The position numbers and the translations under genes are program-made. From an uncultured Prevotellaceae bacterium (lineage in GTDB: Bacteria > Bacteroidota > Bacteroidia > Bacteroidales > Bacteroidaceae), in contig ONCG01000001.1 of NCBI GenBank assembly GCA_900316285.1, positions 213,422-277,421 of the forward strand: a stretch of 64,000 bases of DNA. Reading direction: 5' to 3'. This document shows positions 13,792-56,154 of this stretch, piece after piece. The notes under the pieces are model-generated. The model saw nothing but the letters and a program-made list of their open reading frames with translations, was not told the origin of the DNA and made no database searches. The first letter of the stretch is position 1. Each line of letters opens with the position of its first letter.

Positions 13792-15195
13792 TTATAATGA
13801 CATCACAAACTGATTCAACTCGTCGGCCGTGCCCTCACGCTCAAACATCCGGGTGAAGAGGCGTTTGCGGGCATTGGTCGTAGCCTGCTGAGTGCGATGG
13901 AAGATGTTTGAAATCTGCAGGTTGCCCAGTCCCAACCGAATCAGACAGCACATGCGCAGCTCGGCAGGTTTTATCTTCGGATAGAACACCACGAGGCGGT
14001 TCACGAAACCATCGGCATGCTCGTTCAGCAACGCCTGCAGCTGCGACCATGCGTCATCGCCCAATTCGCCACTACCGCCCTGCCCAATGCGCTCGCAATC
14101 GGCATAGACTGCCGACTGACGGAAGGCTGCCAGCAGACGGTCTTGCTGTGAGCGGTTCTGCTCTTGGGCGGCTAGTCGCTGTTCCTCCTGTCTACGGCTC
14201 TGCGTAACCACCTGCGCCTGCAGGCGTCGCATTCGCCAGCGGAAGAAGGCCGCCACGCCTGCCACGGCCAGCAAAGCCAGCAACGCCACGCCCCAGAGGC
14301 GCAGCCGTAGCCGTCCGTTCTCGCGCTCCACACCAATCTGGTCTTCCAACGACGACACCAGGTCGCCATTCTCACGCACGGTCTGACGGTTCACGCTGTC
14401 CATCATCGCCACACACTCCATGGCACTCAGCCACGCCGACTCGTAGCGGCCGTTGCCGCTCTCCATCTGTGAAAGCAGCATCGTCGCCGCAGCATGTGTC
14501 TTCACGTTTGCACTCTCGCTGGCACGCAGCAACGCCTCTTCAGCTTCTGCCTCACGGCCAAGCCATAGCAGCGCACGCCCGCGAGCCAGCCACATCGCTC
14601 CAACGCCGTCCTCCTCCTGTTTCCCAGAGGCCGACGGGCTGCCAAGTTCAGCCGAACGCTCCAGCCTGTCCATCTCCTCCAACAACCGGCTCACCTGCTC
14701 CTTGTCGCCCTGCTGCAACGCCACATCCATCCACTCGGGCCAGAGGTCGGCACGAGCCTCATCGAGATGTGCCGCCTGTGCCAGCCCGTCGGCCTTTTCG
14801 AAACAGTTGGCAGCCGAGGCTATCCATTCCGGCGACCGCAGACACCGCGACATATCGCGCAGCGCATACACCATGTGCAGCGTGTCGCTACTCGACTGCG
14901 AAAGGTCGAAAGCACGACGGAAGGCCGTCAGGGCATCGTCACGATTGCCTGCCAACAGCTGCAGATTGCCCATGGCAAGCGTGGCCTCCACCGCCCACTG
15001 CGATGTACCGCCCTCCTCCTGTGCCAGCCTGTAGGCCTTCAGCGCATCGCCCTTCCGGCCCTGTTGCTCCAGCTGACAGCCTTCGCGGTAGTGGTCCTCG
15101 GCACTGTTGCGGCCCAAGCAGCCCGCCAGCACCATTGTTGCCACCACCAGCAATACGGCCCATCGGCATTCCGTTCTGATCATTTTTCTCTTCAT
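13792..15195 (-). CDS. Membrane-anchored TPR-repeat protein with a C-terminal HTH-like domain (putative regulator)
   Basis: I set the start at ATG 15195 (MKRKMIRTE...LAGC lipobox-like); the ORF-track start at 15231 is a TTG. The protein has TPR-like repeats, one internal TM segment, a coiled region, and a C-terminus (ELRMCCLIRLGLGNLQISNIF...ATTNARKRL) that resembles an HTH. Confidence 0.7.
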   Translation of the reverse strand: MKRKMIRTECRWAVLLVVATMVLAGCLGRNSAEDHYREGCQLEQQGRKGDALKAYRLAQEEGGTSQWAVEATLAMGNLQLLAGNRDDALTAFRRAFDLSQSSSDTLHMVYALRDMSRCLRSPEWIASAANCFEKADGLAQAAHLDEARADLWPEWMDVALQQGDKEQVSRLLEEMDRLERSAELGSPSASGKQEEDGVGAMWLARGRALLWLGREAEAEEALLRASESANVKTHAAATMLLSQMESGNGRYESAWLSAMECVAMMDSVNRQTVRENGDLVSSLEDQIGVERENGRLRLRLWGVALLALLAVAGVAAFFRWRMRRLQAQVVTQSRRQEEQRLAAQEQNRSQQDRLLAAFRQSAVYADCERIGQGGSGELGDDAWSQLQALLNEHADGFVNRLVVFYPKIKPAELRMCCLIRLGLGNLQISNIFHRTQQATTNARKRLFTRMFEREGTADELNQFVMSL

Positions 15196-15200
15196 GACTG

Positions 15201-15208
15201 CAAAGATA
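15201..15208 (-). promoter_or_regulatory. Candidate -7 box (TATCTTTG) directly upstream of the TPR regulator start
   Basis: Plus-strand CAAAGATA, only 5 nt from the ATG at 15195. This implies a leaderless mRNA or use of a downstream start (ATG at 15183). Confidence 0.35.
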
Positions 15209-15388
15209 CGATGAAATGAGCGAATCACCAAATCTTTTGAAAAGAAACAAAGAAACCATTGCTTTCAGCACCTTTCGCGGTGGTTTCTACTACTCTCATG
15301 CTGTTCCGCAAGCATGTAGGACACCCTCTTCACAGCTTTTCAAATCGAAGCTATCTGCATTCACAAACTTACAACAATCATGCATATT

Positions 15389-15650
15389 TTCGGCAGCATA
15401 CCTGCCAAACATGCGCAGCAAGTCTGCAATCTTTACGCAGCATTGTGGCAAGCTTTGTGCAGCATTGCTGCCTAAATTGTGCAGCAATGCTGCCGAAGTT
15501 GTGCAGGATAGCTGCCTAAGTTGTGCAGCAATGCTGCACAACTTGTGCCAGACTGCTGCACAAATTCTGGCAGTGTGGTTTTCCGATGTTAAAGCAAAAA
15601 GACACCGATGTCAAAGCAAAAAGACACCGATGTCAAAGCAAAAAGATAGG
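15389..15650. repeat. 22-bp phased palindrome array (12 units), locus 1
   Basis: Unit cores begin at 15395, 15417, 15439, 15461, 15483, 15505, 15527, 15549, 15571, 15593, 15615 and 15637. The best units read TTGTGCAGCAaTGCTGC. The last three units are near-identical 22-mers, CCGATGTyAAAGCAAAAAGAyA (15583-15648). Confidence 0.9.
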
Positions 15651-15695
15651 CAATCCACTTTCTATCTCTTTTGAAGAGCTTCGTACTGATTGGGA

Positions 15696-21687: not shown

Positions 21688-25503
<3,816 letters not shown>

Positions 25504-32434: not shown

Positions 32435-32695
32435 TTTTGACCTCACATACTCCAGAAATCTTCTGAAATGCCTTTGTACAAAGGAATTGAGGCACGGGAG
32501 GTCACAACGAGGAACCTCCCGTCAACCTCCCGTTTTTCATTACCTACAAGACTAGGAGAATAAGGGATTTTGCGCTCTGATTAGGAACGCCCCCAAGACA
32601 GGAGGTTGGCGGGAGGTGTGACGGGATGTTACAAAAATTGCAAGTGCTTGATACAGAAGTGGTTAAGAGCAAAATGGGTGTATGTGAGGTCAAAA
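32435..32695. other. 261-bp module bounded by a 16-bp perfect inverted repeat, with a nested second inverted repeat
   Basis: The outer repeat is TTTTGACCTCACATAC (32435-32450) against GTATGTGAGGTCAAAA (32680-32695). The inner pair is CCTCCCGTCAACCTCCCG (32515-32532) against CAGGAGGTTGGCGGGAGG (32599-32616). The inner arms sit 64 and 63 nt inside the outer ends. No ORF is present. Confidence 0.75.
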
Positions 32696-32721: not shown

Positions 32722-32918
32722 GGGAATTAATGCTTTCGGAGACTGGGAGCAATGCTTCCGAACACCCAAAGCAATGCTTTTAAAGGCCAAGAGCATAGCT
32801 TCGGACCTCTAAAAGCAATGCTCTAGACGGCTGAGAGCAATGCTCTGGATGATAGAGAGCAATGCTCTGGAAGCTAAGGAGCATAGCTCTGGTGGTAAGG
32901 AGCATAGCTCTTCATTGA
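32722..32918 (+). repeat. 22-bp phased palindrome array (9 units), locus 2
   Basis: Cores AGCAATGCT / AGCATAGCT begin at 32726, 32748, 32770, 32792, 32814, 32836, 32858, 32880 and 32901 (the last step is 21 bp). Confidence 0.9.
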
Positions 32919-33026: not shown

Positions 33027-33034
33027 TAATTTTG
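33027..33034 (+). promoter_or_regulatory. Candidate -7 box (TAATTTTG) for glycerate kinase
   Basis: TAATTTTG lies 26 nt upstream of the ATG at 33060 and only 11 nt from the ATG at 33045. Confidence 0.5.
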
Positions 33035-33059: not shown

Positions 33060-34214
33060 ATGGGCAAGATCATAGTAGCCATCGATTCGTTCAAAGGCTG
33101 CCTGGCATCTGCAGAGGCTAATCGGGCAGCGGTGGAGGGTATTCTCGCAAGAATGCCTGAGGCTGAGGTGTTGTCGATTCCCGTCAGCGACGGTGGCGAA
33201 GGTTGGCTGGAGGCGTTTAGGAGCCCCACTCCTACCCCCTCCCCAGTAGGGAGGGGAACTAGCCCTACCCCGCCCCTCACCAGTGGGGAGGGAAACCCTA
33301 CTCCAACCCTCCCCAGCAGGGAGGGTGTCCTAGTGGAGGTGGAAGTGAGAGATCCGCTCATGCGACACATTTCAGCACCGTATTTGGTGATGGGCGATAC
33401 GGCTGTGATTGAGATAGCCAAGGCCAGTGGACTGACGCTACTCAATGAAGAAGAGCGCAATCCGATGATTGCAACCAGCTACGGCACTGGGCAACTTGTG
33501 GCTGATGCGGTTCGCCGAGGATGCAGACATATTATCGTTGGGCTTGGCGGAAGTGCGACGAGCGATTGCGGGATAGGTATGCTCCGTGCCATCATCGACA
33601 GTTTTGCCAAGCACGGTTCATGGGATGATGTCCACGAGCTCGATGCCGTTCATTTCACGATTGCAACCGATGTCACCAATCCTTTGTGTGGAGAGAACGG
33701 AGCCGCTCATGTATTTGCCCCACAAAAGGGGGCCACACAGGAAATGGTCCAGTTGCTCGATGCCCGTGCTAAACGGTTTGCCGAAGTCTCTGCCAGACAC
33801 TTCGGCTACGATTGTCAGAATGAGCCTGGTGCAGGAGCCGCAGGCGGACTTGGCTATGCGTTCTTGCAATATATGAATGCTGAACGTCAGTCGGGCATCG
33901 ACCTCCTGTTCGACACGATTGGGTTCGACAGGCTGTTGGACGATGCTTCCCTCGTCATTACAGGCGAAGGAGCCTCCGACCGACAAACGCTGATGGGCAA
34001 GGTTCCTTATGGAATCCTGCAACGTGCCAAGGCGCATCAGGTGCCCGTTGCCCTGATAGCAGGCCGCATTGAAGACCGCCAAGAGCTACTTAACGCGGGT
34101 TTCTCTCAAGTGGTTTGCATCAACCCACCGAATCTGCCCGCCGAAGAAGCCATGAAGCCAGAAACGGCGAAGAGGAACATTTTCGATACGATGCAGCTTC
34201 TCACTTTTTCTTAG
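33060..34214 (+). CDS. glxK: Glycerate kinase carrying an in-frame repeat insertion
   Basis: MGKIIVAIDSFKGCL...PVSDGGEGW...GGSATSDCGIGM...PGAGAAGGLG...VITGEGASDRQT are GlxK/GarK family blocks. I preferred the start at 33060 because MKIV-type N-termini are typical and the -7 box is too close to 33045. Confidence 0.9.
   Translation: MGKIIVAIDSFKGCLASAEANRAAVEGILARMPEAEVLSIPVSDGGEGWLEAFRSPTPTPSPVGRGTSPTPPLTSGEGNPTPTLPSREGVLVEVEVRDPLMRHISAPYLVMGDTAVIEIAKASGLTLLNEEERNPMIATSYGTGQLVADAVRRGCRHIIVGLGGSATSDCGIGMLRAIIDSFAKHGSWDDVHELDAVHFTIATDVTNPLCGENGAAHVFAPQKGATQEMVQLLDARAKRFAEVSARHFGYDCQNEPGAGAAGGLGYAFLQYMNAERQSGIDLLFDTIGFDRLLDDASLVITGEGASDRQTLMGKVPYGILQRAKAHQVPVALIAGRIEDRQELLNAGFSQVVCINPPNLPAEEAMKPETAKRNIFDTMQLLTFS
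33223..33329 (+). repeat. Three tandem in-frame copies (33-nt period) of the GC-rich hairpin element inside glxK
   Basis: CCT-ACy codons recur at 33231, 33264 and 33297. Each unit contains CCCCTCCC-loop-GGGAGGGG or a one-mismatch variant. The units encode PTPSPVGRGTS / PTPPLTSGEGN / PTPTLPSREGV. Confidence 0.9.
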
Positions 34215-37727: not shown

Positions 37728-37860
37728 TCTAAACTGGGCTCTAGGTTCTAGTTTCTGGTTTCGAGTTTCGAGTTTCTGGTTTCAAGTTTCTCGTTTCGAA
37801 CTACTCTAAAAACTCTCAACTCTAAACTGACTCTCAACTCTAAACTCTCAACTCTAAACT
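37727..37860. repeat. Intergenic spacer made almost entirely of heptamer-phased repeats
   Basis: Eight in-phase heptamers GTTTCnn occupy 37744-37799. They are followed by about eight heptamers CTCTmAA / CTnAACT (37801-37860), which are reverse-complement-like to the first set. Confidence 0.85.
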
Positions 37861-43434: not shown

Positions 43435-43673
43435 TAATTACATACTTTTAGGCCCAACAGGGATTTTATCCGCTACGCGGGCTTCGAAAAACATAATAAA
43501 ACCACAAAAACCAAAGAAAACATTTGGCTTTTATCTGTGTATACCCTAAATGTTTTTTCCTGTTTTTGATGTTTTCTTTTGTTTTTTAAAGGCGCGAAGC
43601 GCATTATGAGCTTAGAGTCAAATTCTATAGGTTTCCTGCATTTTTTAGATTAAATAACATTTCACGGCGAAAA

Positions 43674-43704
43674 AACTCTAAGCTCTAAACTCTAAACTCT
43701 AAAC
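43674..43704. repeat. Heptamer repeat (AACTCTA, about 4.5 copies) just upstream of the mdh -7 box
   Basis: AACTCTA-AGCTCTA-AACTCTA-AACTCTA-AACT. Confidence 0.8.
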
Positions 43705-43711
43705 TTTTTTG

Positions 43712-43780: not shown

Positions 43781-44773
43781 ATGGCATTTTTAACTAACGA
43801 CAAACTCGTCATCGTCGGCGCAGCCGGCATGATCGGTTCCAACATGGCTCAGTCGGCTCTGATGATGGGCCTCACGAGCAACCTGTGTCTCTACGACGTG
43901 TTCTCACCCGAAGGCGTAGCTGAGGAAATGCGCCAGAGCGGCTTCGACGAAGCCACCATCACCGCTACCACCGATGCCGAAGAGGCATTCCGCGGAGCTA
44001 AGTACATCATCTCCTCTGGTGGTGCTCCCCGTAAGGAAGGCATGACACGTGAGGACCTGCTCGCAGGCAACTGCAAGATAGCCGAGGAGCTGGGTAAGAA
44101 CATCCAGAAGTTCTGCCCCGACGTGAAGCACGTCGTCATCATCTTCAACCCCGCCGACCTCACCGGCCTCGTCACGCTGCTCTATAGCGGACTGAAACCC
44201 TCACAGGTAACAACCCTCGCTGCCCTCGACACCACTCGTCTGCAGAGCGCACTTGCCAAGAAGTTCGGTGTGAAGCAGAGCGAGATCAAGGGCTGCGCCA
44301 CCTATGGTGGTCACGGCGAGCAGATGGCTGTGTTCGGCTCTCACGTAGAGATTGCCGGTCGCAAGCTCATCGACATCATTGGTACACCTGAGTTCCCCGC
44401 TGAGGAGTGGGAGCAGATGAAGAAGGACGTCACCCAGGGTGGTGCCGCCATCATCAAGTTGCGTGGCCGTTCCAGTTTCCAGAGTCCGTCTTATCTCTCT
44501 GTTGAGATGATTCGTTCGGCTATGGGCGGCGAACCTTTCCGCTTCCCCGTCGGAACCTATGTGAAGACTGACAAATACGACCACATCATGATGGCCATGA
44601 AGACCACCCTCGACGTTACGGGTGCCCACTTCGAAGTGCCTCAGGGTCTGCCCGAGGAGAACGCCAAGCTCGATGCCAGCTATGAGCACCTCTGCAAGAT
44701 GCGCGACGAGCTCGTGACGCTGAACATCGTACCGCCCATCGCTGAGTGGTCGAAGATCAACCCGAACCTGTAA
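43781..44773 (+). CDS. mdh: Malate dehydrogenase (Bacteroidota 330-aa type)
   Basis: Rossmann motif VIVGAAGMIGSNMA. LDH/MDH family blocks are present throughout the length. Confidence 0.85.
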   Translation: MAFLTNDKLVIVGAAGMIGSNMAQSALMMGLTSNLCLYDVFSPEGVAEEMRQSGFDEATITATTDAEEAFRGAKYIISSGGAPRKEGMTREDLLAGNCKIAEELGKNIQKFCPDVKHVVIIFNPADLTGLVTLLYSGLKPSQVTTLAALDTTRLQSALAKKFGVKQSEIKGCATYGGHGEQMAVFGSHVEIAGRKLIDIIGTPEFPAEEWEQMKKDVTQGGAAIIKLRGRSSFQSPSYLSVEMIRSAMGGEPFRFPVGTYVKTDKYDHIMMAMKTTLDVTGAHFEVPQGLPEENAKLDASYEHLCKMRDELVTLNIVPPIAEWSKINPNL

Positions 44774-44806
44774 GCCCCACCCCTGCCCTCCCCTGTAGGG
44801 AGGGGG
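44774..44806 (+). repeat. GC-rich hairpin element copy abutting the mdh stop codon
   Basis: GCCCCACCCC-TGCCCTCCCC-tgta-GGGAGGGG begins at the first base after the TAA (44771-44773). Confidence 0.85.
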
Positions 44807-44830
44807 ATGACAATTAATCATTGACAATTA

Positions 44831-44876
44831 AAAATGCCGTGCGACTCGTTTGAGTGCACGGCATTTTTTGTTTTTA
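44831..44876 (+). terminator. Rho-independent terminator of mdh
   Basis: A 12-bp stem AAAATGCCGTGC (44831-44842) / GCACGGCATTTT (44856-44867) running into TTTTTTGTTTTT. Confidence 0.85.
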
Positions 44877-44945: not shown

Positions 44946-45303
44946 CTGGAAAGCATTGAGTTCGTGATGCTGGAGCATTGACCTTGTGATGCAAGAGCAT
45001 TGAGGTTGTGGTGCGAGAGCATTGAGGTTGTGGTGCGGGAGCAATGAGTTAGTGAGGCGGGAGCATTGACATTGTTCAGTAAATTAACTTAATTTGTGCA
45101 GTAAATTAACTTAATTTGCGTGGTAAATTAACTTATTTTACTTGGTAAATTAACTTAATTTGCTGAATAAATTAAGTTAATTTACTTTTCAATTTAAGTT
45201 AATTCATGAAAAGGGAGCATTGCTGACGGTTCACGAGACGATTGCTATAGATAAACAAAAGCAATGCTCCACTCAATATAGAGCACTGCTTTACTATGGG
45301 AAA
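44946..45303 (-). repeat. 22-bp phased palindrome array (16 units), locus 3
   Basis: AGCAWTG cores begin at 44952, 44974, 44996, 45018, 45040 and 45062. TAAATTAAcTTAATTT units begin at 45080, 45102, 45124, 45146, 45168 and 45190. AGCA-type cores resume at 45216, 45238, 45260 and 45282. All sit in one 22-bp register. Confidence 0.92.
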
Positions 45304-45355
45304 AACAAAAATAGTAGCAACGATATCGCAGATGGCACAATACCCTCTGCAGTAA

Positions 45356-45553
45356 GACCCCAAAGGGGTCACACTATGGCAACCGCAGGTCTTGACCTGC
45401 GGTGGAAGTAACTACGCAGGGGACGACTTCGAAGATGTCGCACAATAGCACTGTCATTCTTGTTGTGCGACCCCTCTGGGGTCGTAGCCATGTGGATGCC
45501 TTACCACCGCGGGTCAAGACCCGCGGTTACCATAGTGTGACCCCTTTGGGGTC
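45356..45553. other. 198-nt structured module: two inverted ~50-nt copies flanking a hairpin-rich core (candidate ncRNA or MITE)
   Basis: The left arm (45356-45405) matches the reverse complement of the right arm (45500-45553) at about 46 of 50 positions. Each arm holds two local hairpins: GACCCC-nnn-GGGGTC and CCGCrGG-n6-CCyGCGG. The core has stems 45437-45445 / 45463-45471 and 45469-45483. Confidence 0.75.
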
Positions 45554-45589
45554 CTTTCTCGATTCATCGGGGTCCTTTCTCGATTCATC
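45548..45589. repeat. Perfect 21-bp direct repeat, two copies
   Basis: GGGGTCCTTTCTCGATTCATC occurs at 45548-45568 and again at 45569-45589. The first copy starts inside the last hairpin of the structured module. Confidence 0.9.
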
Positions 45590-45611
45590 TTTGTGCCATC
45601 TAATATATTAT

Positions 45612-45697
45612 TAAAAAAAGTTGTCCCTTGTTGTTTGGGTTGTCTTTTTAAAAAACTAATGGTGTTATTTAAAACAACTCAAACAACAAGGGACTAC
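45612..45697 (-). terminator. Long hairpin plus T7 after the GH29 gene
   Basis: AGTTGTCCCTTGTTGTTTGGGTTGT (45619-45643) pairs with ACAACTCAAACAACAAGGGACTAC (45674-45697). On the minus strand the hairpin is followed by TTTTTTT. Confidence 0.7.
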
Positions 45698-45719
45698 TTA
45701 TCGAACTATAGGTCAACGA

Positions 45720-47327
45720 TTACTTGATCTTCAGCACGGGAGCAATCTTGTTGCAGGGGGCAGGGAGTGTGACGACAAGGCCTTCGGCAGTCTGGCGGGC
45801 TTTCACCTTGCCATAACCAAGGAGTGTGACGCTGCCGACCTTGCGGCCATAGGGGTTGCCCTTGCGCAATGACTTGATGACGAGCTTACTATTTTCCGGC
45901 CAACTCATTGCTGTTACATATAGCACACGGCCCTTTTGGTTGAAGCGGATGTCACGATAGTCCATGTTCGAATACTGCCCATCGTTGAAGCCTTGCGCGT
46001 TGAGGGCGATGCTCTTCTCTGCCACAGGACCTTCGCCGAACACCTTCCAGGGGCGTGTGCCGAAGATGCTTTCGCCGTTCACCGTCATCCAAGCCTCGAG
46101 GTCATCGAGCACTACTGCCTCCTTTTCATCATACGTACCATCGGCGCGCAGGGGGATGGAAAGCAACAGGTTACCATTCTTCGACACAATGTCGACCAGC
46201 ATTTTTACTACCTGTGCTGCGCTCTTATACGACCCACGCTCATAGATGCTCGTGTTGTAGTGCCATCCACCAATGCAGTTGCACGTCTGCCAAGGTTCGT
46301 CGACGATGTAGTTTGGTGCTCCACGCTCCACATCCCACGTCAAAGCCTTGCGCTGCTCTTCATCGAGAATCTTACCAAACACCACTGCCCGCGGGTTGCG
46401 GTTATAGAGATGGGTGACTATCTTCAAACCACAATCGCTGATGGCATGGAATGGCAATACCGTTGCATCGAAGTAGATGAGGTCGGGTTGATAGCGATTG
46501 ATGGCATCGAGCGAACGATCGTAGAAATTCGTGACGAACTCCTGCGAGGGAATAGCGGCCCCGTGTGTCCAGTCCCACTGCTGGTGGATGGCTCCATTCC
46601 ACCAAGCCCGCTCGCTCATGGGATGCTGTTGCTGGTAGAGCTGCTGCGGGTCGAAGCCTTCCCACCATTTGCCCTTGCCATCTTCCTTGGTGAGATGACC
46701 ATCGTAGTAGACGCCTGCTTTCGAGCCGTTCAGGTCGTAGCGCTGCGCGGGTTCATACCACGTCCATGCATGATCGGCGTGGAAGGAGATGCCCAACGGC
46801 AGGCCAGCCTTCTTCGCTGCCTTCGCCCACTCGTCGAGGATGTCGCGCTTCGGACCGATGTTCTTCGAGTTCCAGGGCTGATACTTCGAGTCCCAGAGGT
46901 CGTAGTTGTCGTGGTGATTGCCCAGCACGAAGAAATACTGCGCGCCGCAGCGCTTATAGCGTGCGACGAGTTCGTCGGGATTCCATTTCTCTGCCTTGAA
47001 GAGCGGCAGCACATCCTTGAAGCCGAACTCCGAAGGATGGCCGTAGTGCTCGACGTGGTATTTATACTCACGCGTACCTTCCATATACAAAGAGCGGGCC
47101 ATCCAGTCTCCGGAGCCTTCTACGCATTGCGGCCCCCAGTGAGCCCAGATGCCGAACTTCGCGTTGCGAAACCACTCGGGTGTCTGATGCTGGCTGAGCG
47201 ACTGCCATGTAGGTTGATACTTGCCCGTCTGCATCGGCTCGTGAGCCTCCGACACAGGCACTTGGTACTGCTGCGCCGAGACCGTCAGGCTCAAGGCGAG
47301 AAGCAGGGTTGTGATGGTTGCTTTCAT
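45720..47327 (-). CDS. GH29 alpha-L-fucosidase
   Basis: 535 aa with a signal peptide. WFRNAKFGIWAHWGPQ, YFFVLGNHHDNYDLWDS and ISFHADHAW are GH29 blocks. Confidence 0.88.
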   Translation of the reverse strand: MKATITTLLLALSLTVSAQQYQVPVSEAHEPMQTGKYQPTWQSLSQHQTPEWFRNAKFGIWAHWGPQCVEGSGDWMARSLYMEGTREYKYHVEHYGHPSEFGFKDVLPLFKAEKWNPDELVARYKRCGAQYFFVLGNHHDNYDLWDSKYQPWNSKNIGPKRDILDEWAKAAKKAGLPLGISFHADHAWTWYEPAQRYDLNGSKAGVYYDGHLTKEDGKGKWWEGFDPQQLYQQQHPMSERAWWNGAIHQQWDWTHGAAIPSQEFVTNFYDRSLDAINRYQPDLIYFDATVLPFHAISDCGLKIVTHLYNRNPRAVVFGKILDEEQRKALTWDVERGAPNYIVDEPWQTCNCIGGWHYNTSIYERGSYKSAAQVVKMLVDIVSKNGNLLLSIPLRADGTYDEKEAVVLDDLEAWMTVNGESIFGTRPWKVFGEGPVAEKSIALNAQGFNDGQYSNMDYRDIRFNQKGRVLYVTAMSWPENSKLVIKSLRKGNPYGRKVGSVTLLGYGKVKARQTAEGLVVTLPAPCNKIAPVLKIK

Positions 47328-47404
47328 GTTTATAGTTTCAAGTTTAAAGTTTCTAGTTTCTAGTTTCTAGGTTCAAGTTTTTGGTTTCAAGCTCCTAGTT
47401 TTTG
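47328..47404. repeat. Eleven in-phase heptamers starting at the base next to the GH29 start codon
   Basis: GTTTATA GTTTCAA GTTTAAA GTTTCTA GTTTCTA GTTTCTA GGTTCAA GTTTTTG GTTTCAA GCTCCTA GTTTTTG. On the coding strand this reads (nnGAAAC)n running into the ATG. Confidence 0.9.
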
Positions 47405-47520: not shown

Positions 47521-47564
47521 GTGGGTTCAAAATATATAACCACCAAATGATTAATTCTCAATTA

Positions 47565-49520
47565 TCAAATTTCAATTACTATGACCATGCCGCCACGAGC
47601 CGGCAGGGGGACGGCTTCAGGCAGCGAGTTGGGATGAAAAATGATCCAAGGAGTCTGCTCATTCCCTGCAGAGAGGGGACTACCCGAGTCGGCAAAACAG
47701 GTGATGTTCTTGAACCCTTGAACCTTTGAACGCTGCGAAGCAGCTTTTAAACCTTTTATCTTCTTCAGTCCCTTCAGGCTGACGGTCTGCTGTTCGTCGC
47801 GTCCGTTGAGCATGCCCACATACCACTTGTTGCCACTACAGCGAGCCATGACAACGTATTGTCCTGGATAGCCGTCAATCAGACGCGTCTCGTCCCAAAC
47901 GGTCGGCAGCTGGCCAAGGAACTGCTGCACCTCCTTGGGCTGTGCAAGGAAGCTCTCGGGGCGGTCGGCCAGATGCTGCAATGCCGACTCAAAGACTACG
48001 GTCAGCGCCAACTCATGGCCATGGGTGGTGATGTGTGGATGCTGCGAGTCGCTAAAGGCACAAGGCGTGTAGTCCATCGGTCCGATGACGTTGCGTGTGA
48101 AGGGCAGCATGCAGTTATGAGCCGCAGCCTTTCGGGTGAACGTTGGCACATTGTTATACCATTCGGCACCATAGACGCCCTCCGTGGAGAGAAGGTTCGG
48201 CCACGTTCGCTGCCAGCCGCGAGGAATCGTAGCACCATGGAAGTTCACCAGCAGATGATGGCGGGCGCCACACTCCAGCAAGTCCTGACAATACTGCATG
48301 TTCATCTGGTTATCGCCGGAGAAGAAGTCAATCTTCACACCAGCCACGCCGATGCGCTCACACCAAGCGAACTCTCGCTCGCGGTCTTCAGGCTTATTCA
48401 ATCGGAACTTCGGTCCCGGTGCCCCATTGATCCATCCCACCGAGGAGTTATACCATATCATCGGCTTCACGCCCTGCTGGCGGGCATACGCCACGGCGTC
48501 TTCGACGGTCTTGCCATCCTTCATCTCATCCCATTCGGCATCGATGAGCACATAGGGCAGATGCAGCGCTACCGCCATATCAACATACTTCTTAATGATG
48601 TTGTAATCGTTGGAGCCATGATTGTAAGCCCAGTAGACCCACGACACTACGCCGGGCTGAATCCAACTGGTATCGGCAATCTTACTCGGCTCTGCCATAT
48701 CGGTGATGAGCGTCGACTCAACGATATCAGCCAGCGAACCCATAATGACTACACGCCACGGCGTATGCCACGACCCGCTGATTTCAACTTCGTTCTGATC
48801 GGGAACGACACGATAGAGTTCGCCTTCGCTATGGAGACACGATGCACTCTGTCGCGATTCAATGTTCGACTCACTGATGAGGGCATACACCGTATGTCCA
48901 TGCCGATGGTCGGAGAAGTCGAACAAGGCGGGATAGCCCCAGAGGTTTGACGGCTGGCGTCCCCAGCCCGCACTCACAGGTTTTCCATCGAACGCAAGCG
49001 GAAAGAATCCTTCGTAGGCATCGCTCCACGGCTGCACCCAACGAGGGGTTCCATCGGGGATTCGGAATGCGGTTTGTTCCGACGAAAAGCGGCAGGGGGG
49101 CAGATTCTCCAATTCATAACGAAAGGCGATGCCGTCGTTGCAAAGCCGCATGACGAGCACCTGTTCTTGCCCTTCAGCATCGCGGAAGGTGTAGCGATAT
49201 TCGTTATATTGATTGGTGCAGTGGAGGCGCTTACCTGCCAGCATCGTATAATCCACATCGACGCGATGCCCCTCCCCCGACGCAACGAGGGAAAGAGAGG
49301 CTGGTCTTCGTTTGCCATCAGCAGACAGAGACACGCCAACATCGGCAATTGTCAGCACTTGCCGGCCCTGATAAAGCACGTCGAACCCGTTTGCATGCGG
49401 CTGCAATCCAATGCGACCGTTCGGCGAATGAGCCGGTGCTGCCACGACGGACACGCTACAAAGCAACGCCAACAGCGCAGCTAATGAAACACCCAAAATG
49501 GTTTGATTCTTTCCCTTCAT
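47565..49520 (-). CDS. GH97 glycoside hydrolase (alpha-glucosidase / alpha-galactosidase family)
   Basis: 651 aa with a signal peptide. YVLIDAEWDEM, GVAGVKIDFF and NFHGATIPRGWQRTWPNLLSTEGVYGAEW match GH97 (SusB-like) blocks. Confidence 0.85.
   Translation of the reverse strand: MKGKNQTILGVSLAALLALLCSVSVVAAPAHSPNGRIGLQPHANGFDVLYQGRQVLTIADVGVSLSADGKRRPASLSLVASGEGHRVDVDYTMLAGKRLHCTNQYNEYRYTFRDAEGQEQVLVMRLCNDGIAFRYELENLPPCRFSSEQTAFRIPDGTPRWVQPWSDAYEGFFPLAFDGKPVSAGWGRQPSNLWGYPALFDFSDHRHGHTVYALISESNIESRQSASCLHSEGELYRVVPDQNEVEISGSWHTPWRVVIMGSLADIVESTLITDMAEPSKIADTSWIQPGVVSWVYWAYNHGSNDYNIIKKYVDMAVALHLPYVLIDAEWDEMKDGKTVEDAVAYARQQGVKPMIWYNSSVGWINGAPGPKFRLNKPEDREREFAWCERIGVAGVKIDFFSGDNQMNMQYCQDLLECGARHHLLVNFHGATIPRGWQRTWPNLLSTEGVYGAEWYNNVPTFTRKAAAHNCMLPFTRNVIGPMDYTPCAFSDSQHPHITTHGHELALTVVFESALQHLADRPESFLAQPKEVQQFLGQLPTVWDETRLIDGYPGQYVVMARCSGNKWYVGMLNGRDEQQTVSLKGLKKIKGLKAASQRSKVQGFKNITCFADSGSPLSAGNEQTPWIIFHPNSLPEAVPLPARGGMVIVIEI
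47708..47756 (-). repeat. Intergenic-type heptamer/hairpin repeat embedded in-frame in the GH97 CDS
   Basis: CTTTGAACGCTGCGaAGCAGCTTT matches the reverse complement of 50578-50612 at 23 of 24 positions. It is flanked by TTGAACC heptamers and encodes KGLKAASQRSKVQGFKN. Confidence 0.7.
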
Positions 49521-51593: not shown

Positions 51594-51672
51594 CTGTTAG
51601 AGTTGAGAGGTTGAGAGATGTATATGAATCTATAAAAGGTAATCATAATTATCAATTATCAACTATCAATTA
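51594..51672. repeat. Spacer with two heptamer runs
   Basis: GTTAGAG-TTGAGAG-GTTGAGAG lies at the 5' side and AATTATC-AATTATC-AACTATC-AATTATT at the 3' side. Confidence 0.75.
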
Positions 51673-52623
51673 TTAACTGTTCTTCCATCTTACACGCTGT
51701 TGGTCGCCGATGATTTCCTTTACTTTTTCTACAAGCTGCCAGTCGATGGGCTTCTCCACATAGCTGATGCTGCGCAACACATTCTCGGGCGAAGCACTGC
51801 TGAAGAGCGTTGTGGCGATGCGCGGCGACAGACTTACGGCAAACTGAATGGCAAGCTCCTCGATGGGATAGCCTTGAGCGGCACAGTATTCGGCAGCACG
51901 CTTGCAGGCATCGCGCAGGCTTTCGGGAGCGGGATGCCAGTCGGGAGCTCCGCGCGACGAAAGCAGTCCCATCGAGAACGGCGACGCATTGATGACGCCA
52001 ATGCCACGCTCCTCGAAGTAGTCGAGATAGTCGGTGAGCATATCGTCGTTCAGACTGTAGTGGCAGAAGCAGAGGATGCTCTCTACGGTGCCTTCCGGCG
52101 AGTGGTCTACGACCCACTGCAGGTTCTCTGGCTGCAGGTCGGTGATGCCCACATGGCGCACAACACCCTCTTCGCGCAACTTCACAAGTGCAGGCAATGT
52201 CTCGTCGACCACCTTCTGCAAGCCGCCCGGCAGAGCAGCCTGGAACTCGATGTCATGCACATTGATGAGGTCGATATAGTCGATACCCAGTCGTTCCATG
52301 CTCTCATAGACGCTGCGGGTGACACGCTCAGCCGAATAGTCCCACATGTTGACACCATCCTTGCCATAGCGGCCCACCTTCGTGGAGAGGTAGTACTTGT
52401 CGCGGGGAATCTCACGCAATGCCTTACCCAACACCTGCTCGGCCTTCAGATGGCCATAGTAGGGCGACACATCGATGAAGTTAATGCCATTATCTACGGC
52501 TACATGCACAGCACGAATGCCTTCTTCTTCGCGGATGCCATGGAACACGCCGCCGAGCGACGATGCCCCAAAAGACAACGCCGATACCCGCATACCAGTT
52601 TTTCCAATTTCGTTATAAACCAT
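51673..52623 (-). CDS. Aldo/keto reductase (L-galactose / L-fucose dehydrogenase-like)
   Basis: 316 aa. GKTGMRVSALSFGASSLGGVF...GINFIDVSPYYG...STKVGRY...FSAERV...YIDLINVHDIEF closely follows the L-galactose dehydrogenase pattern. Confidence 0.85.
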   Translation of the reverse strand: MVYNEIGKTGMRVSALSFGASSLGGVFHGIREEEGIRAVHVAVDNGINFIDVSPYYGHLKAEQVLGKALREIPRDKYYLSTKVGRYGKDGVNMWDYSAERVTRSVYESMERLGIDYIDLINVHDIEFQAALPGGLQKVVDETLPALVKLREEGVVRHVGITDLQPENLQWVVDHSPEGTVESILCFCHYSLNDDMLTDYLDYFEERGIGVINASPFSMGLLSSRGAPDWHPAPESLRDACKRAAEYCAAQGYPIEELAIQFAVSLSPRIATTLFSSASPENVLRSISYVEKPIDWQLVEKVKEIIGDQQRVRWKNS

Positions 52624-55913: not shown

Positions 55914-56154
55914 ATCATTGCCTTTTTGGGACTAGAGCACCGTGTTCGCGGAATTTCACTATGGTAAAAAGTTCTTTTCACCACAATAAATTGCTCTTTT
56001 GACCATAGTAAATGACCCGTGAAGTATATTTTCTGCGGTTTACAGCTATTTTTTTACAAATCAGAAATAGGGGTTTTCGTGCGTTTTGCCGTTATAAGGG
56101 ATGAAGTCAATTGATTTTCAGTGAATGCAAAAGAAGAAAAAAAAAACGGAAGAC

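Follow-up and report, generated by a model that had tools for sequence, protein, structure and literature searches.

The stretch analysed here, hereafter the window, comprises 64,000 nucleotides from an uncultured Prevotellaceae bacterium (GenBank assembly GCA_900316285.1, contig ONCG01000001.1, positions 213,422 to 277,421 of the forward strand) and is a segment of chromosome, from a rumen Prevotella, with rpoB/rpoC, tuf and tRNA genes. Within it, mdh (43781-44773, + strand) and a gene for a GH29 alpha-L-fucosidase (45720-47327, - strand) bound a gap of 946 bp that holds an array of short repeat units, which we call A3. The original prediction placed this gap between convergent terminators and saw no credible open reading frame (ORF) in it, and both statements hold: a terminator-like hairpin of mdh at 44830-44868 on the + strand (AAAAATGCCGTGC..GCACGGCATTTTT, with 13-nt arms that are 100% complementary) forms its left limit, a long hairpin 3' of the GH29 gene at 45618-45699 on the - strand (29-nt arms, 90% complementary) forms its right limit, and between the two genes there are only short ORFs. 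A3 belongs to a class of intergenic dyad arrays that occurs across the Prevotellaceae, and its likeliest binders would be found among the HU-HIG proteins, a branch of the HU/IHF family.

Written in rows of 22 bases, A3 consists of sixteen units in one unbroken 22-bp register from 44952 to 45303 (a 352-bp block). The unit coordinates and the register of the original prediction were confirmed by this layout, by Tandem Repeats Finder, which returns a period of 22 in blocks 1 and 2, and by a lag-22 identity of 0.67 over 44952-45303, compared with 0.27 +/- 0.05 at other lags. Three blocks can be distinguished, none of which has a strand assigned. Block 1 (44952-45083) contains six 22-bp units of consensus AGCATTGAGGTTGTGATGCGGG with a lag-22 identity of 0.76, in which AGCATTG or AGCAATG starts at 44952, 44974, 44996, 45018, 45040 and 45062; these units hold the left half of the family core (AGCAWTG) together with a weak inverted repeat of their own, GCATTG..TGATGC. 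Block 2 (45072-45205) is made of six AT-rich 22-bp units, TTGTGCAGTAAATTAACTTAAT, with a lag-22 identity of 0.82. Each contains a 7-1-7 palindrome, AAATTAA-S-TTAATTT, and of these TAAATTAASTTAATTT palindromes, which start at 45080-45190, four are perfect, one has one mismatch and one has two; overall the block forms a quasi-palindrome whose 61-nt arms (45071-45131 / 45133-45193) are 80% complementary. Block 3 (45216-45303) has four units at exact 22-bp spacing, with a lag-22 identity of 0.52 vs 0.24 at other lags. Its cores AGCATTGCT, ACGATTGCT, AGCAATGCT and AGCACTGCT, at 45216, 45238, 45260 and 45282, keep the register unchanged and are separated by unrelated spacers, the sole part common to the units being AGCAWTGCT or a near match.

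The description of A3 as sixteen palindrome-bearing units stands for the register and for blocks 2 and 3; the six units of block 1 are half-sites, AGCATTGAG being without a right half-site. Since block-1 units are not dyads about the centre proposed for them (AGCATTGAG), the distance of 22 bp between dyad centres at the junction of blocks 1 and 2 is nominal only. TTGTG is common to blocks 1 and 2 and AGCAWTG to blocks 1 and 3, in each case without a shift of phase, which gives the blocks the look of variants that were amplified inside one array. Amplification of this kind would keep the phase across class switches automatically, so that the conservation of phase where the sequence class changes, although observed as claimed, is not in itself proof of constraint.

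The core is shared with two other arrays of the window, A1 (15389-15650) and A2 (32722-32918). Strongly periodic 110-nt segments number 47 in the 64 kb; the period is at lag 22 in 40 of them, all inside A1, A2 or A3. AGCAWTGCT has 10 matches in the window, only in these three arrays, where 0.77 would be expected and none of 100 shuffles reaches 10, and the AT-type dyad has 6 matches vs 0.04 expected. The earlier description of a core AGCA-W-TGCT common to the three arrays is right as to its presence in them; the centre of the family is not A-W-T but a free W3 triplet, as shown by the wider comparison that follows.

Using a query of three AGCAWWGCT cores with 9-17 free bases between them, we scanned one genome per GTDB species and obtained at least 109 matching stretches. 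Exact spacing of 22+22 bp occurs at at least 54 loci in Prevotella, Hoylesella and other Prevotellaceae. Among the matches listed, a genome has up to 13 loci (RGIG7592, with 13 dispersed family arrays), 54 of 58 Prevotellaceae loci have a period of 22, and matches from other phyla mostly have different spacings and look unrelated. The same core pattern at a fixed 22-bp spacing is present in 53 phage contigs of IMG/VR. The family is thus not confined to the window.

To describe the unit, 251 units from 56 arrays were aligned on the core. A logo of 127 units, taken from mostly ATA/TAT-centred arrays of many genomes, gives the consensus A-R-R-A-G-C-[W-W-W]-G-C-T-Y-Y-T, with 0.6 to 2.0 bits of information at positions -6 to +6 and less than 0.3 bit at +/-8 to 11, the length of the spacer being fixed. 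From conserved positions flanked by an uninformative spacer of fixed length, it follows that the unit is a dyad of 13-15 bp plus about 8 free bases. At the centre of the free triplet (AGC-WWW-GCT) pairing occurs in 33% of units, past the AGC/GCT arms it is weak (58% vs 42% in the control at distance 5, and no excess at distance 6), and G-T and A-C mispairs are equally frequent. In 24 of the 56 arrays the centre triplet is found in both orientations (ATA/TAT or AAT/ATT) among otherwise alike units; most units of the window are AAT/ATT-centred. A layout of three units and one flipped end unit recurs in many genomes, Hoylesella marshii among them, and also in phages. The units run head-to-tail, the flip is limited to the 3-nt centre, and no tetranucleotide is conserved outside the dyad.

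The period extends beyond this one core. In a census of 475 kb of Prevotella DNA, which was fetched via mdh and not selected for repeats, the 163 non-redundant tandem arrays show peaks at periods of 7 (34 arrays, the commonest), 15 (16), 22 (16) and 21 (12), with none at 19-20 and two at 23. The 22-bp units of this census are mutually unrelated in sequence, and significant internal palindromes were found in 8 of 30 arrays with a period of 21-23 vs 2 of 62 at other periods. The 22-bp period belongs to the genomes, not to one sequence.

All family arrays are intergenic, the four that appear to lie within ORFs being cases where the repeat itself makes the ORF. Where neighbours were called on both sides, 21 arrays lie between co-directional genes, 12 between divergent and 8 between convergent ones, a split close to random placement in intergenic DNA. 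Because arrays are equally at home in convergent, divergent and tandem intergenic regions, the classical operator role suggested for A3 is unlikely. The arrays fold far better than shuffled sequences (mean z about -7; A3 as single-stranded DNA, z = -9.0), on both strands alike, and relative to co-directional neighbours there is no preference for the sense strand, which folds better in 12 of 21 cases. At the gathering score, Rfam returns only tRNAs in the window, and its sub-threshold matches in the mdh-GH29 gap are generic long hairpins resembling eukaryotic miRNA models, without meaning. All-vs-all BLAST of the flanks of the arrays of the window, 11 of RGIG7592, six of Cattle_2_mag_37 and four of H. 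marshii revealed no shared flank, leader, tail or terminal inverted repeat.

Comparisons between relatives indicate that arrays change slowly and by whole units. Two contigs that are 99% identical over 7 kb (L152/L194) have equal unit numbers, and the array has diverged less than the DNA immediately upstream of it. Orthologous rpoD genes of two species (79% nucleotide identity) each have an array upstream, with 4 vs 6 units and with different outer bases and spacers. Unit counts differ by whole units, both at the rpoD loci and in the HU-HIG-encoding contigs treated below. In RGIG5030, a 410-bp block occurs twice (L039 816-1222 and L052 2393-2802); the copies are 87% identical and lie in unrelated flanks, with the array in mid-block, and both have four units with near-identical spacers, the array being conserved better than its flanks. 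This block is either a composite element like BrickBuilt, a repeat element of Porphyromonas gingivalis, or a product of two related strains binned together. Two other contigs (L171/L172) have in common an array of three AAAAGG-TWA-CCTTTT units, about 75 bp long, at about 700-790, between unrelated DNA on both sides, and are 99% identical from position 850 onward; this array appears to sit at a recombination or insertion boundary.

In the phages, arrays of 4-5 units occupy two fixed intergenic positions. At the first, the array runs from the stop codon of the gene upstream to a point 73 nt short of where a large tail-protein ORF is called to start, and a canonical TAATTTTG box stands between array and ORF. 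At the second, it ends 39-41 nt before the gene of a 164-aa protein that matches the Pfam families HU-HIG (PF18291, E = 1e-25) and Bac_DNA_binding. According to the available part of the paper that describes it, the HU-HIG clade is Bacteroidota-specific and dimeric, has undergone massive, recent expansion and fast divergence, and is of unknown function, with no conserved gene neighbours reported and a proposed role in conflicts with invasive DNA (PMC5499826). Bacteroidota IHF-alpha-like proteins, some with the HU-HIG signature, are the subject of a 2025 preprint that, in its available part, calls their reading of sequence untested (10.1101/2024.06.24.600358). Upstream 22-bp arrays go unmentioned for HU-HIG in the available parts of both sources (PMC5499826; 10.1101/2024.06.24.600358).

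Homologs of the phage 164-aa protein were surveyed in encoding-contig and plasmid collections, and form 14 homolog groups. Seven of them have a 22-bp dyad array no more than 300 bp upstream of the HU-HIG gene, with a period of 22 each time and with five unrelated dyads: AAAGC-WWW-GCTTT, GAGCAnTGCTC, AGTGAG-GCCAT-CTCACT, AGAAAC-CATG-CCTTTCT and GTGAAACGA-TCGTTTCAC. In the phage group the dyad reads AAAGC-ATA-GCTTT. Upstream of P0145, from Prevotella dentalis DSM 3688, whose gene occupies 981842-982309 of CP003368 and whose four-unit array occupies 981726-981813, AGCTATGCT occurs twice together with AGCATAGCT and AGCACAGCT, the last core ending 42 nt before the ATG, and upstream of P0177 and P0178, from rumen Prevotella including RGIG7592, 7-8 units GGAGCAnTGCTCYGTAGG precede a TAACTTTG promoter box. 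The third dyad is present five times upstream of P0162, the fourth four times upstream of P0136, and the fifth upstream of a Parabacteroides distasonis gene. A further group has an 11-bp array upstream and a 22-bp array of the family downstream, another has a 22-bp array 440 bp upstream, and in five of the 14 no array of period 11 or 21-23 bp was found within 450 bp upstream. As a control, arrays of 21-23 bp within 400 bp upstream were counted for 362 genes in the mdh loci and the window; 12 genes had one (3.3%), and against this background the six of the first eight HU-HIG groups with an array correspond to a binomial p of 3.5e-8.

Adjoining blocks of unlike sequence class remain in phase outside A3 too. 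In KH2P17, AGTGAG-GCCAT-CTCACT units adjoin AGCTATGCT units with the phase kept, this GCCAT class being the one found upstream of one of the HU-HIG genes. By inspection, 17 of 22 positions agree between the A2 unit and the unit that lies upstream of the HU-HIG gene in RGIG7592, and block 1 of A3 has AGGTTGTGG and AGCAWTG in common with the units at that gene.

Some other features of the HU-HIG loci deserve mention. In P. dentalis, another Prevotella and B. finegoldii, HU-HIG genes have repeats of 9-10 bp (GTTGTTAYCC, and CACAGATTG with its inverse ATCTGTGAA) on their 3' side (L249 3528-3996; L268 2386-2412 and 2974-2992; L273 1260-1286). These repeats lie near a small gene annotated as 'smalltalk protein', and may be a second conserved non-coding feature of HU-HIG cassettes. 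At L268 1395-1436, 65 nt upstream of an HU-HIG gene, there is an AT-rich 11-bp array, AAAATTAATGG in 3.9 copies, with a period half as long as usual; its likeness to the AAATTAA half-site of the AT-type units of the window is loose. A 1458-bp contig labelled as a metagenome-assembled genome of Atopobium sp. (L028) has an array of the phage type together with a copy, 95% identical, of the HU-HIG gene of the phages, and is almost certainly a mis-binned fragment of a Prevotella phage.

From these patterns we infer that a short dyad site (RRAGC-WWW-GCTYY and variants derived from it), placed every 22 bp or about two helical turns, would form a phased row for a dimeric, sequence-reading protein of nucleoid type, for which the HU-HIG branch of the HU/IHF family offers the best candidate. 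One dimer would sit on each dyad, and neighbouring dimers would be aligned on one face of the helix. A common protein architecture would set the 22-bp period and HU-HIG paralogs would differ in the dyad they read, which would explain why unrelated dyads have one period. An array upstream of the gene of its own protein might serve autoregulation, and arrays elsewhere, such as the three of the window and those of the phages, might be further sites acting in trans that structure DNA or modulate nearby promoters. Arrays would evolve by duplication and loss of whole units and by block amplification of variant units, and for that reason would keep their phase. We favour, tentatively and at a little short of an even chance, the reading that the arrays are phased binding arrays for dimeric HU-HIG-type proteins, growing and shrinking in phase as minisatellites do. 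It would account for the pattern of conservation, the shared period, the indifference to orientation, the retention in phages and the gene association. The earlier proposal of phased sites for a dimeric protein is partly supported by the conserved dyads, by arrays that are more conserved than their flanks, by their retention in phages and by the association with HU-HIG genes. A bolder version, which we think rather unlikely, would have HU-HIG proteins sequence-specific after all, each paralog reading its own dyad in rows of 22 bp for autoregulation and at tens of intergenic sites per chromosome, phages included, with array classes and paralogs co-diversifying as a protein-DNA code for nucleoid structuring or promoter control.

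Several points weigh against the HU-HIG model. Classical HU/IHF dimers cover about 30-35 bp when they bend DNA, a poor fit to packing at 22 bp. The link to HU-HIG is guilt by association. Half of the groups (7 of 14) have no 22-bp array within 300 bp upstream, and the 14 groups are homologs, in which gene and array may have been inherited or mobilised together. With a custom hidden Markov model, no HU-HIG gene was found in the window or beside any of 56 host arrays of the family, so that the arrays of the window would have to be sites acting in trans. The number of units varies, contigs with an identical HU-HIG protein differing by exactly one 22-bp unit, and a few Prevotellaceae arrays have periods of 21 or 23 bp (L007, L091, L032, L101), which makes 22 a strong mode and not an absolute. 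The presence of some arrays in dispersed blocks, as in RGIG5030 and L171/L172, suggests mobility or recombination. Finally, Burroughs et al. judged sequence specificity of HU-HIG unlikely, in the part of their paper that is available (PMC5499826).

The chief alternative is a palindromic minisatellite, selfish or neutral, of the kind of BrickBuilt or of the repetitive extragenic palindromic sequences and bacterial interspersed mosaic elements (REP/BIME), in which a hairpin unit seeds slippage and template switching, the period is inherited from founder units, and arrays spread through small non-autonomous elements or arise locally, with no cellular function. BrickBuilt itself, a 23-nt dyad-symmetric intergenic minisatellite of a related family, is a close precedent (PMC4596501). 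Strictly intergenic placement in near-random orientation fits such an origin, as do the dispersed 410-bp block of RGIG5030, the L171/L172 array block with its different flanks, the one-unit difference between strains, the 4 vs 6 units at orthologous loci, the block amplification in A3 and the strong folding on both strands, and flips of the centre would be expected from hairpin-mediated template switching. Neutral decay, however, would not leave a core of 13-15 bp intact across genera beside randomised spacers of fixed length, and the arrays exceed their flanks in conservation in both L152/L194 and L039/L052. The missing leader, tail and terminal inverted repeat in the window, RGIG7592, Cattle_2_mag_37 and H. 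marshii, the missing BrickBuilt terminal repeat, the fixed positions in phages and the non-random association with HU-HIG genes also speak against it, and we regard a functionless minisatellite as unlikely. The original prediction had set A3 apart from a randomly slipping minisatellite; the maintenance of cores and of spacer length agrees with this, while the differences of one unit, the 4 vs 6 units and the block amplification do not. An element acting at the RNA level, as a row of hairpins in untranslated regions or in a transcript of its own that stabilises or processes mRNA or titrates an RNA-binding protein, appears improbable. Hairpins that stabilise or process mRNA are known from E. coli REP sequences, the folding scores and the modest covariation of the outer stem at distance 5 would agree with such a role, and arrays in phage operons start -6 to +3 nt from the upstream stop codon. 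Against it are the indifference to strand, the lack of covariation at distance 6, the equal numbers of G-T and A-C mispairs, conserved stems of merely 3-5 bp without a match in Rfam, and the position of A3 between the terminators of both its neighbours.

Tandem promoter elements were considered given that the ATA-centred core reads TAGCTTTG, matching the Bacteroidota -7 box TAnnTTTG; arrays would then be promoter clusters or docking sites of RNA polymerase, and a flipped unit would fire the opposite way. TAGCTTT(G) does lie inside ATA-centred cores, which contain TAGCTTTG/T, 141 of 155 phage boxes point at the downstream gene, arrays of the layout '<<<>' are mostly found between genes whose starts face the boxes, and segments of BrickBuilt have bidirectional promoter activity (PMC4596501). 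The phage boxes, however, represent two or three independent loci only, and host boxes point toward gene starts in 80 and gene ends in 58 cases, or 18 vs 11 when counted by array, which is not significant. AAT/ATT-centred units, the majority in the window, have no TA, and the left half AAAGC, which a promoter does not need, is conserved like the right half. Canonical -7 boxes exist downstream of the arrays (TAATTTTG in L236, TAACTTTG in L255/L265, and those at 33027 and 15371 in the window), and one array in five lies between convergent genes. We judge a promoter function to have about the same small chance as an RNA element. The original prediction also mentioned an iteron-like array, which could mean replication-origin iterons or a partition site, with A3, where GC-type repeats surround an AT-rich block, as the origin of an integrated plasmid- or phage-like element. 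Arrays do occur in phages, and direct repeats of about 22 bp with internal dyads beside an AT-rich segment recall lambda ori and R6K. There are, however, many arrays per chromosome (up to 13 loci per genome among the matches listed), A1, A2 and A3 have no initiator, partition or mobile-element gene in their vicinity, and the phage arrays stand upstream of the tail gene and the HU-HIG gene, not of replication genes. Copy number and context practically rule this role out, and we consider it highly improbable.

Turning to the other arrays of the window, none of which has a strand, A1 contains about 8 units TTGTGCAGCAATGCTGCCTAAG, some of them full 22-bp palindromes, followed by three units CCGATGTCAAAGCAAAAAGACA, all at a period of 22, and adjoins a -7-like box, TAAGTTTG, at 15371 on the - strand, which belongs to a TPR gene (13792-15231). 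An ORF of 152 aa with an ATG start (15216-15674) spans A1; a Pfam scan assigns it to no family, and it is probably an artefact of a stop-free repeat. Similar ORFs made by repeats are seen in L041, L078 and L101. A2 contains nine units, in which the core is GAGCAATGCTC / AGCATAGCT and the spacers vary, and is located 110-300 bp upstream of the promoter-like box of glycerate kinase, TAATTTTG (33027). A short 22-bp array at 55965-56012, with 2.2 copies of TAAAAAGCTCTTTTCACCACAA and the dyad AAAAG-CT-CTTTT, lies upstream of a TonB-dependent receptor gene at 56125. The genes that neighbour arrays of the window are mdh, GH29, rpsU, xerC-like, glycerate kinase, TPR and HxlR.

Other repeats occur near these arrays. 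In the gap between rpsU and glycerate kinase, just upstream of A2, AACCTCCCGTC and GACGGGAGGTT, 11-bp repeats that are reverse complements, face each other at 32513-32533 and 32597-32630, about 65 bp apart, and a 23-bp repeat, AACCTCCCGTCACACCTCCCATA, in L078 of RGIG7592 is related to them. The hairpin motif CCCTCCCC-NNNN-GGGAGGGG, found 3' of the mdh stop codon (44776-44810), is also present as a 33-bp tandem repeat of 2.6 copies inside the glycerate kinase ORF (33236-33325), where 33 bp adds 11 codons per copy, and a similar motif occurs in the long leader of rumen HU-HIG genes (L264, about 1310-1345); it gives the impression of a second family of dispersed repeats in rumen Prevotella. Intergenic 7-bp tandem repeats (TTTCAAG/TTTCTAG, AACTCTC, AAACTCT, AATTATC) are located at 37740-37860, 43673-43705, 47322-47401, 47553-47578 and 51647-51678.

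Directly to the right of A3 there is a 286-bp inverted-repeat element (45323-45608), with inner arms at 45356-45405/45504-45553 (50 nt, 94% complementary), outer arms at 45323-45340/45591-45608 and a perfect 21-bp direct duplication at 45548-45589. [quoted passage not shown] In contigs that encode an identical mdh protein, one of them a metagenome contig labelled STEW19, the gap is identical except for one scaffolding stretch of Ns. BLAST found nothing in common with the gap in 80 metagenome mdh loci whose protein is at most 94% identical. The best relatives of the GH29 protein bear Prevotella names; relatives of its gene are mostly without synteny, and in the one syntenic contig the remaining 318 bp past the gene are unrelated to the gap.

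Prevotellaceae dominate rumen, oral and many human gut communities, and their non-coding DNA is almost undescribed; in the DNA sampled here about 3% of genes have a 21-23-bp array upstream. If the HU-HIG model is true, proteins whose function has been open since they were defined in 2017 would gain specific and predictable targets, and the single period of unrelated repeats in Prevotellaceae genomes would be explained. On a practical level, the arrays break short-read assemblies and make spurious ORFs such as 15216-15674, and could be used as strain markers.

Of the candidates among known systems, CRISPR arrays were rejected, considering that the conserved part is 13-15 nt (CRISPR repeats have at least 23 nt), spacers are of about 8 nt and no cas genes lie near the arrays of the window. 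CRP/FNR-like sites, sigma-54 promoters, LytTR sites (9-bp repeats with 12-13-bp spacers) and the 22-bp end sites of Tn7/Mu were also considered, and misfit in sequence, copy number or context. Our literature search for 22-bp arrays in Prevotella or Bacteroidota found the BrickBuilt paper alone, and a transcriptome paper on Segatella copri makes no mention of repeats.

BrickBuilt is the closest described element. Like the present arrays, it belongs to Bacteroidales, is strictly intergenic, has about 19 or more copies per genome and no match in Rfam, and consists of repeats joined head-to-tail, each spanning about two helical turns, with dyad symmetry, long stem-loops, a strain-variable number of units and an alternation of conserved and variable positions within the unit; one of its copies adjoins a gene of the HU family (PF00216) (PMC4596501). 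It differs in its 23-nt unit without spacers, the arrays of the window all having a period of 22, in shared leader and tail segments, not found here except perhaps in the 410-bp block of RGIG5030, and in an IS5-like terminal inverted repeat, GAGACCTTTGCA, which has one match with 2 mismatches in the window, inside rpoB/rpoC at 22391, where 6.25 are expected by chance. Its range is P. gingivalis and P. gulae, whereas the present family occupies Prevotellaceae genera and their phages. Period, ends and range set the two apart. The original prediction did not recognise A3 as a described element; a close analogue has nevertheless been published (PMC4596501). The new part would be the HU-HIG link, the arrays themselves being akin to described repeat elements.

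REP/BIME sequences are likewise short imperfect palindromes (21-65 nt), intergenic, dispersed and clustered, located 3' of stop codons and between convergent genes. They are bound by nucleoid proteins of the HU/IHF family (the IHF-binding RIB/RIP BIMEs) and by gyrase, and their function is debated. They differ in their alternating orientation, in a GTAG-type 5' tetranucleotide, in a REP-associated tyrosine transposase (RAYT) and in the lack of a fixed 22-bp register; no RAYT (IS200/IS605-type) transposase was noticed in the window, where no dedicated search was made. Iteron and centromere arrays (the 22-bp iterons of R6K, lambda ori, parC of pSK41) are, like the present arrays, made of direct repeats about 20-22 bp long that are in helical phase and have internal dyads. 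There, each repeat takes one protein dimer, the dimers lie on one face of the helix, and the binder is often encoded in an adjacent, autoregulated gene. Such arrays occur once or a few times per replicon beside rep/par genes, whereas those described here are dispersed, tens of them to a chromosome, without such genes nearby. By analogy, the arrays would functionally resemble iteron and centromere rows and IHF-binding BIMEs while belonging to neither, and the many paralogs of the HU-HIG clade would correspond in number to the dyad classes that have the one period in common.

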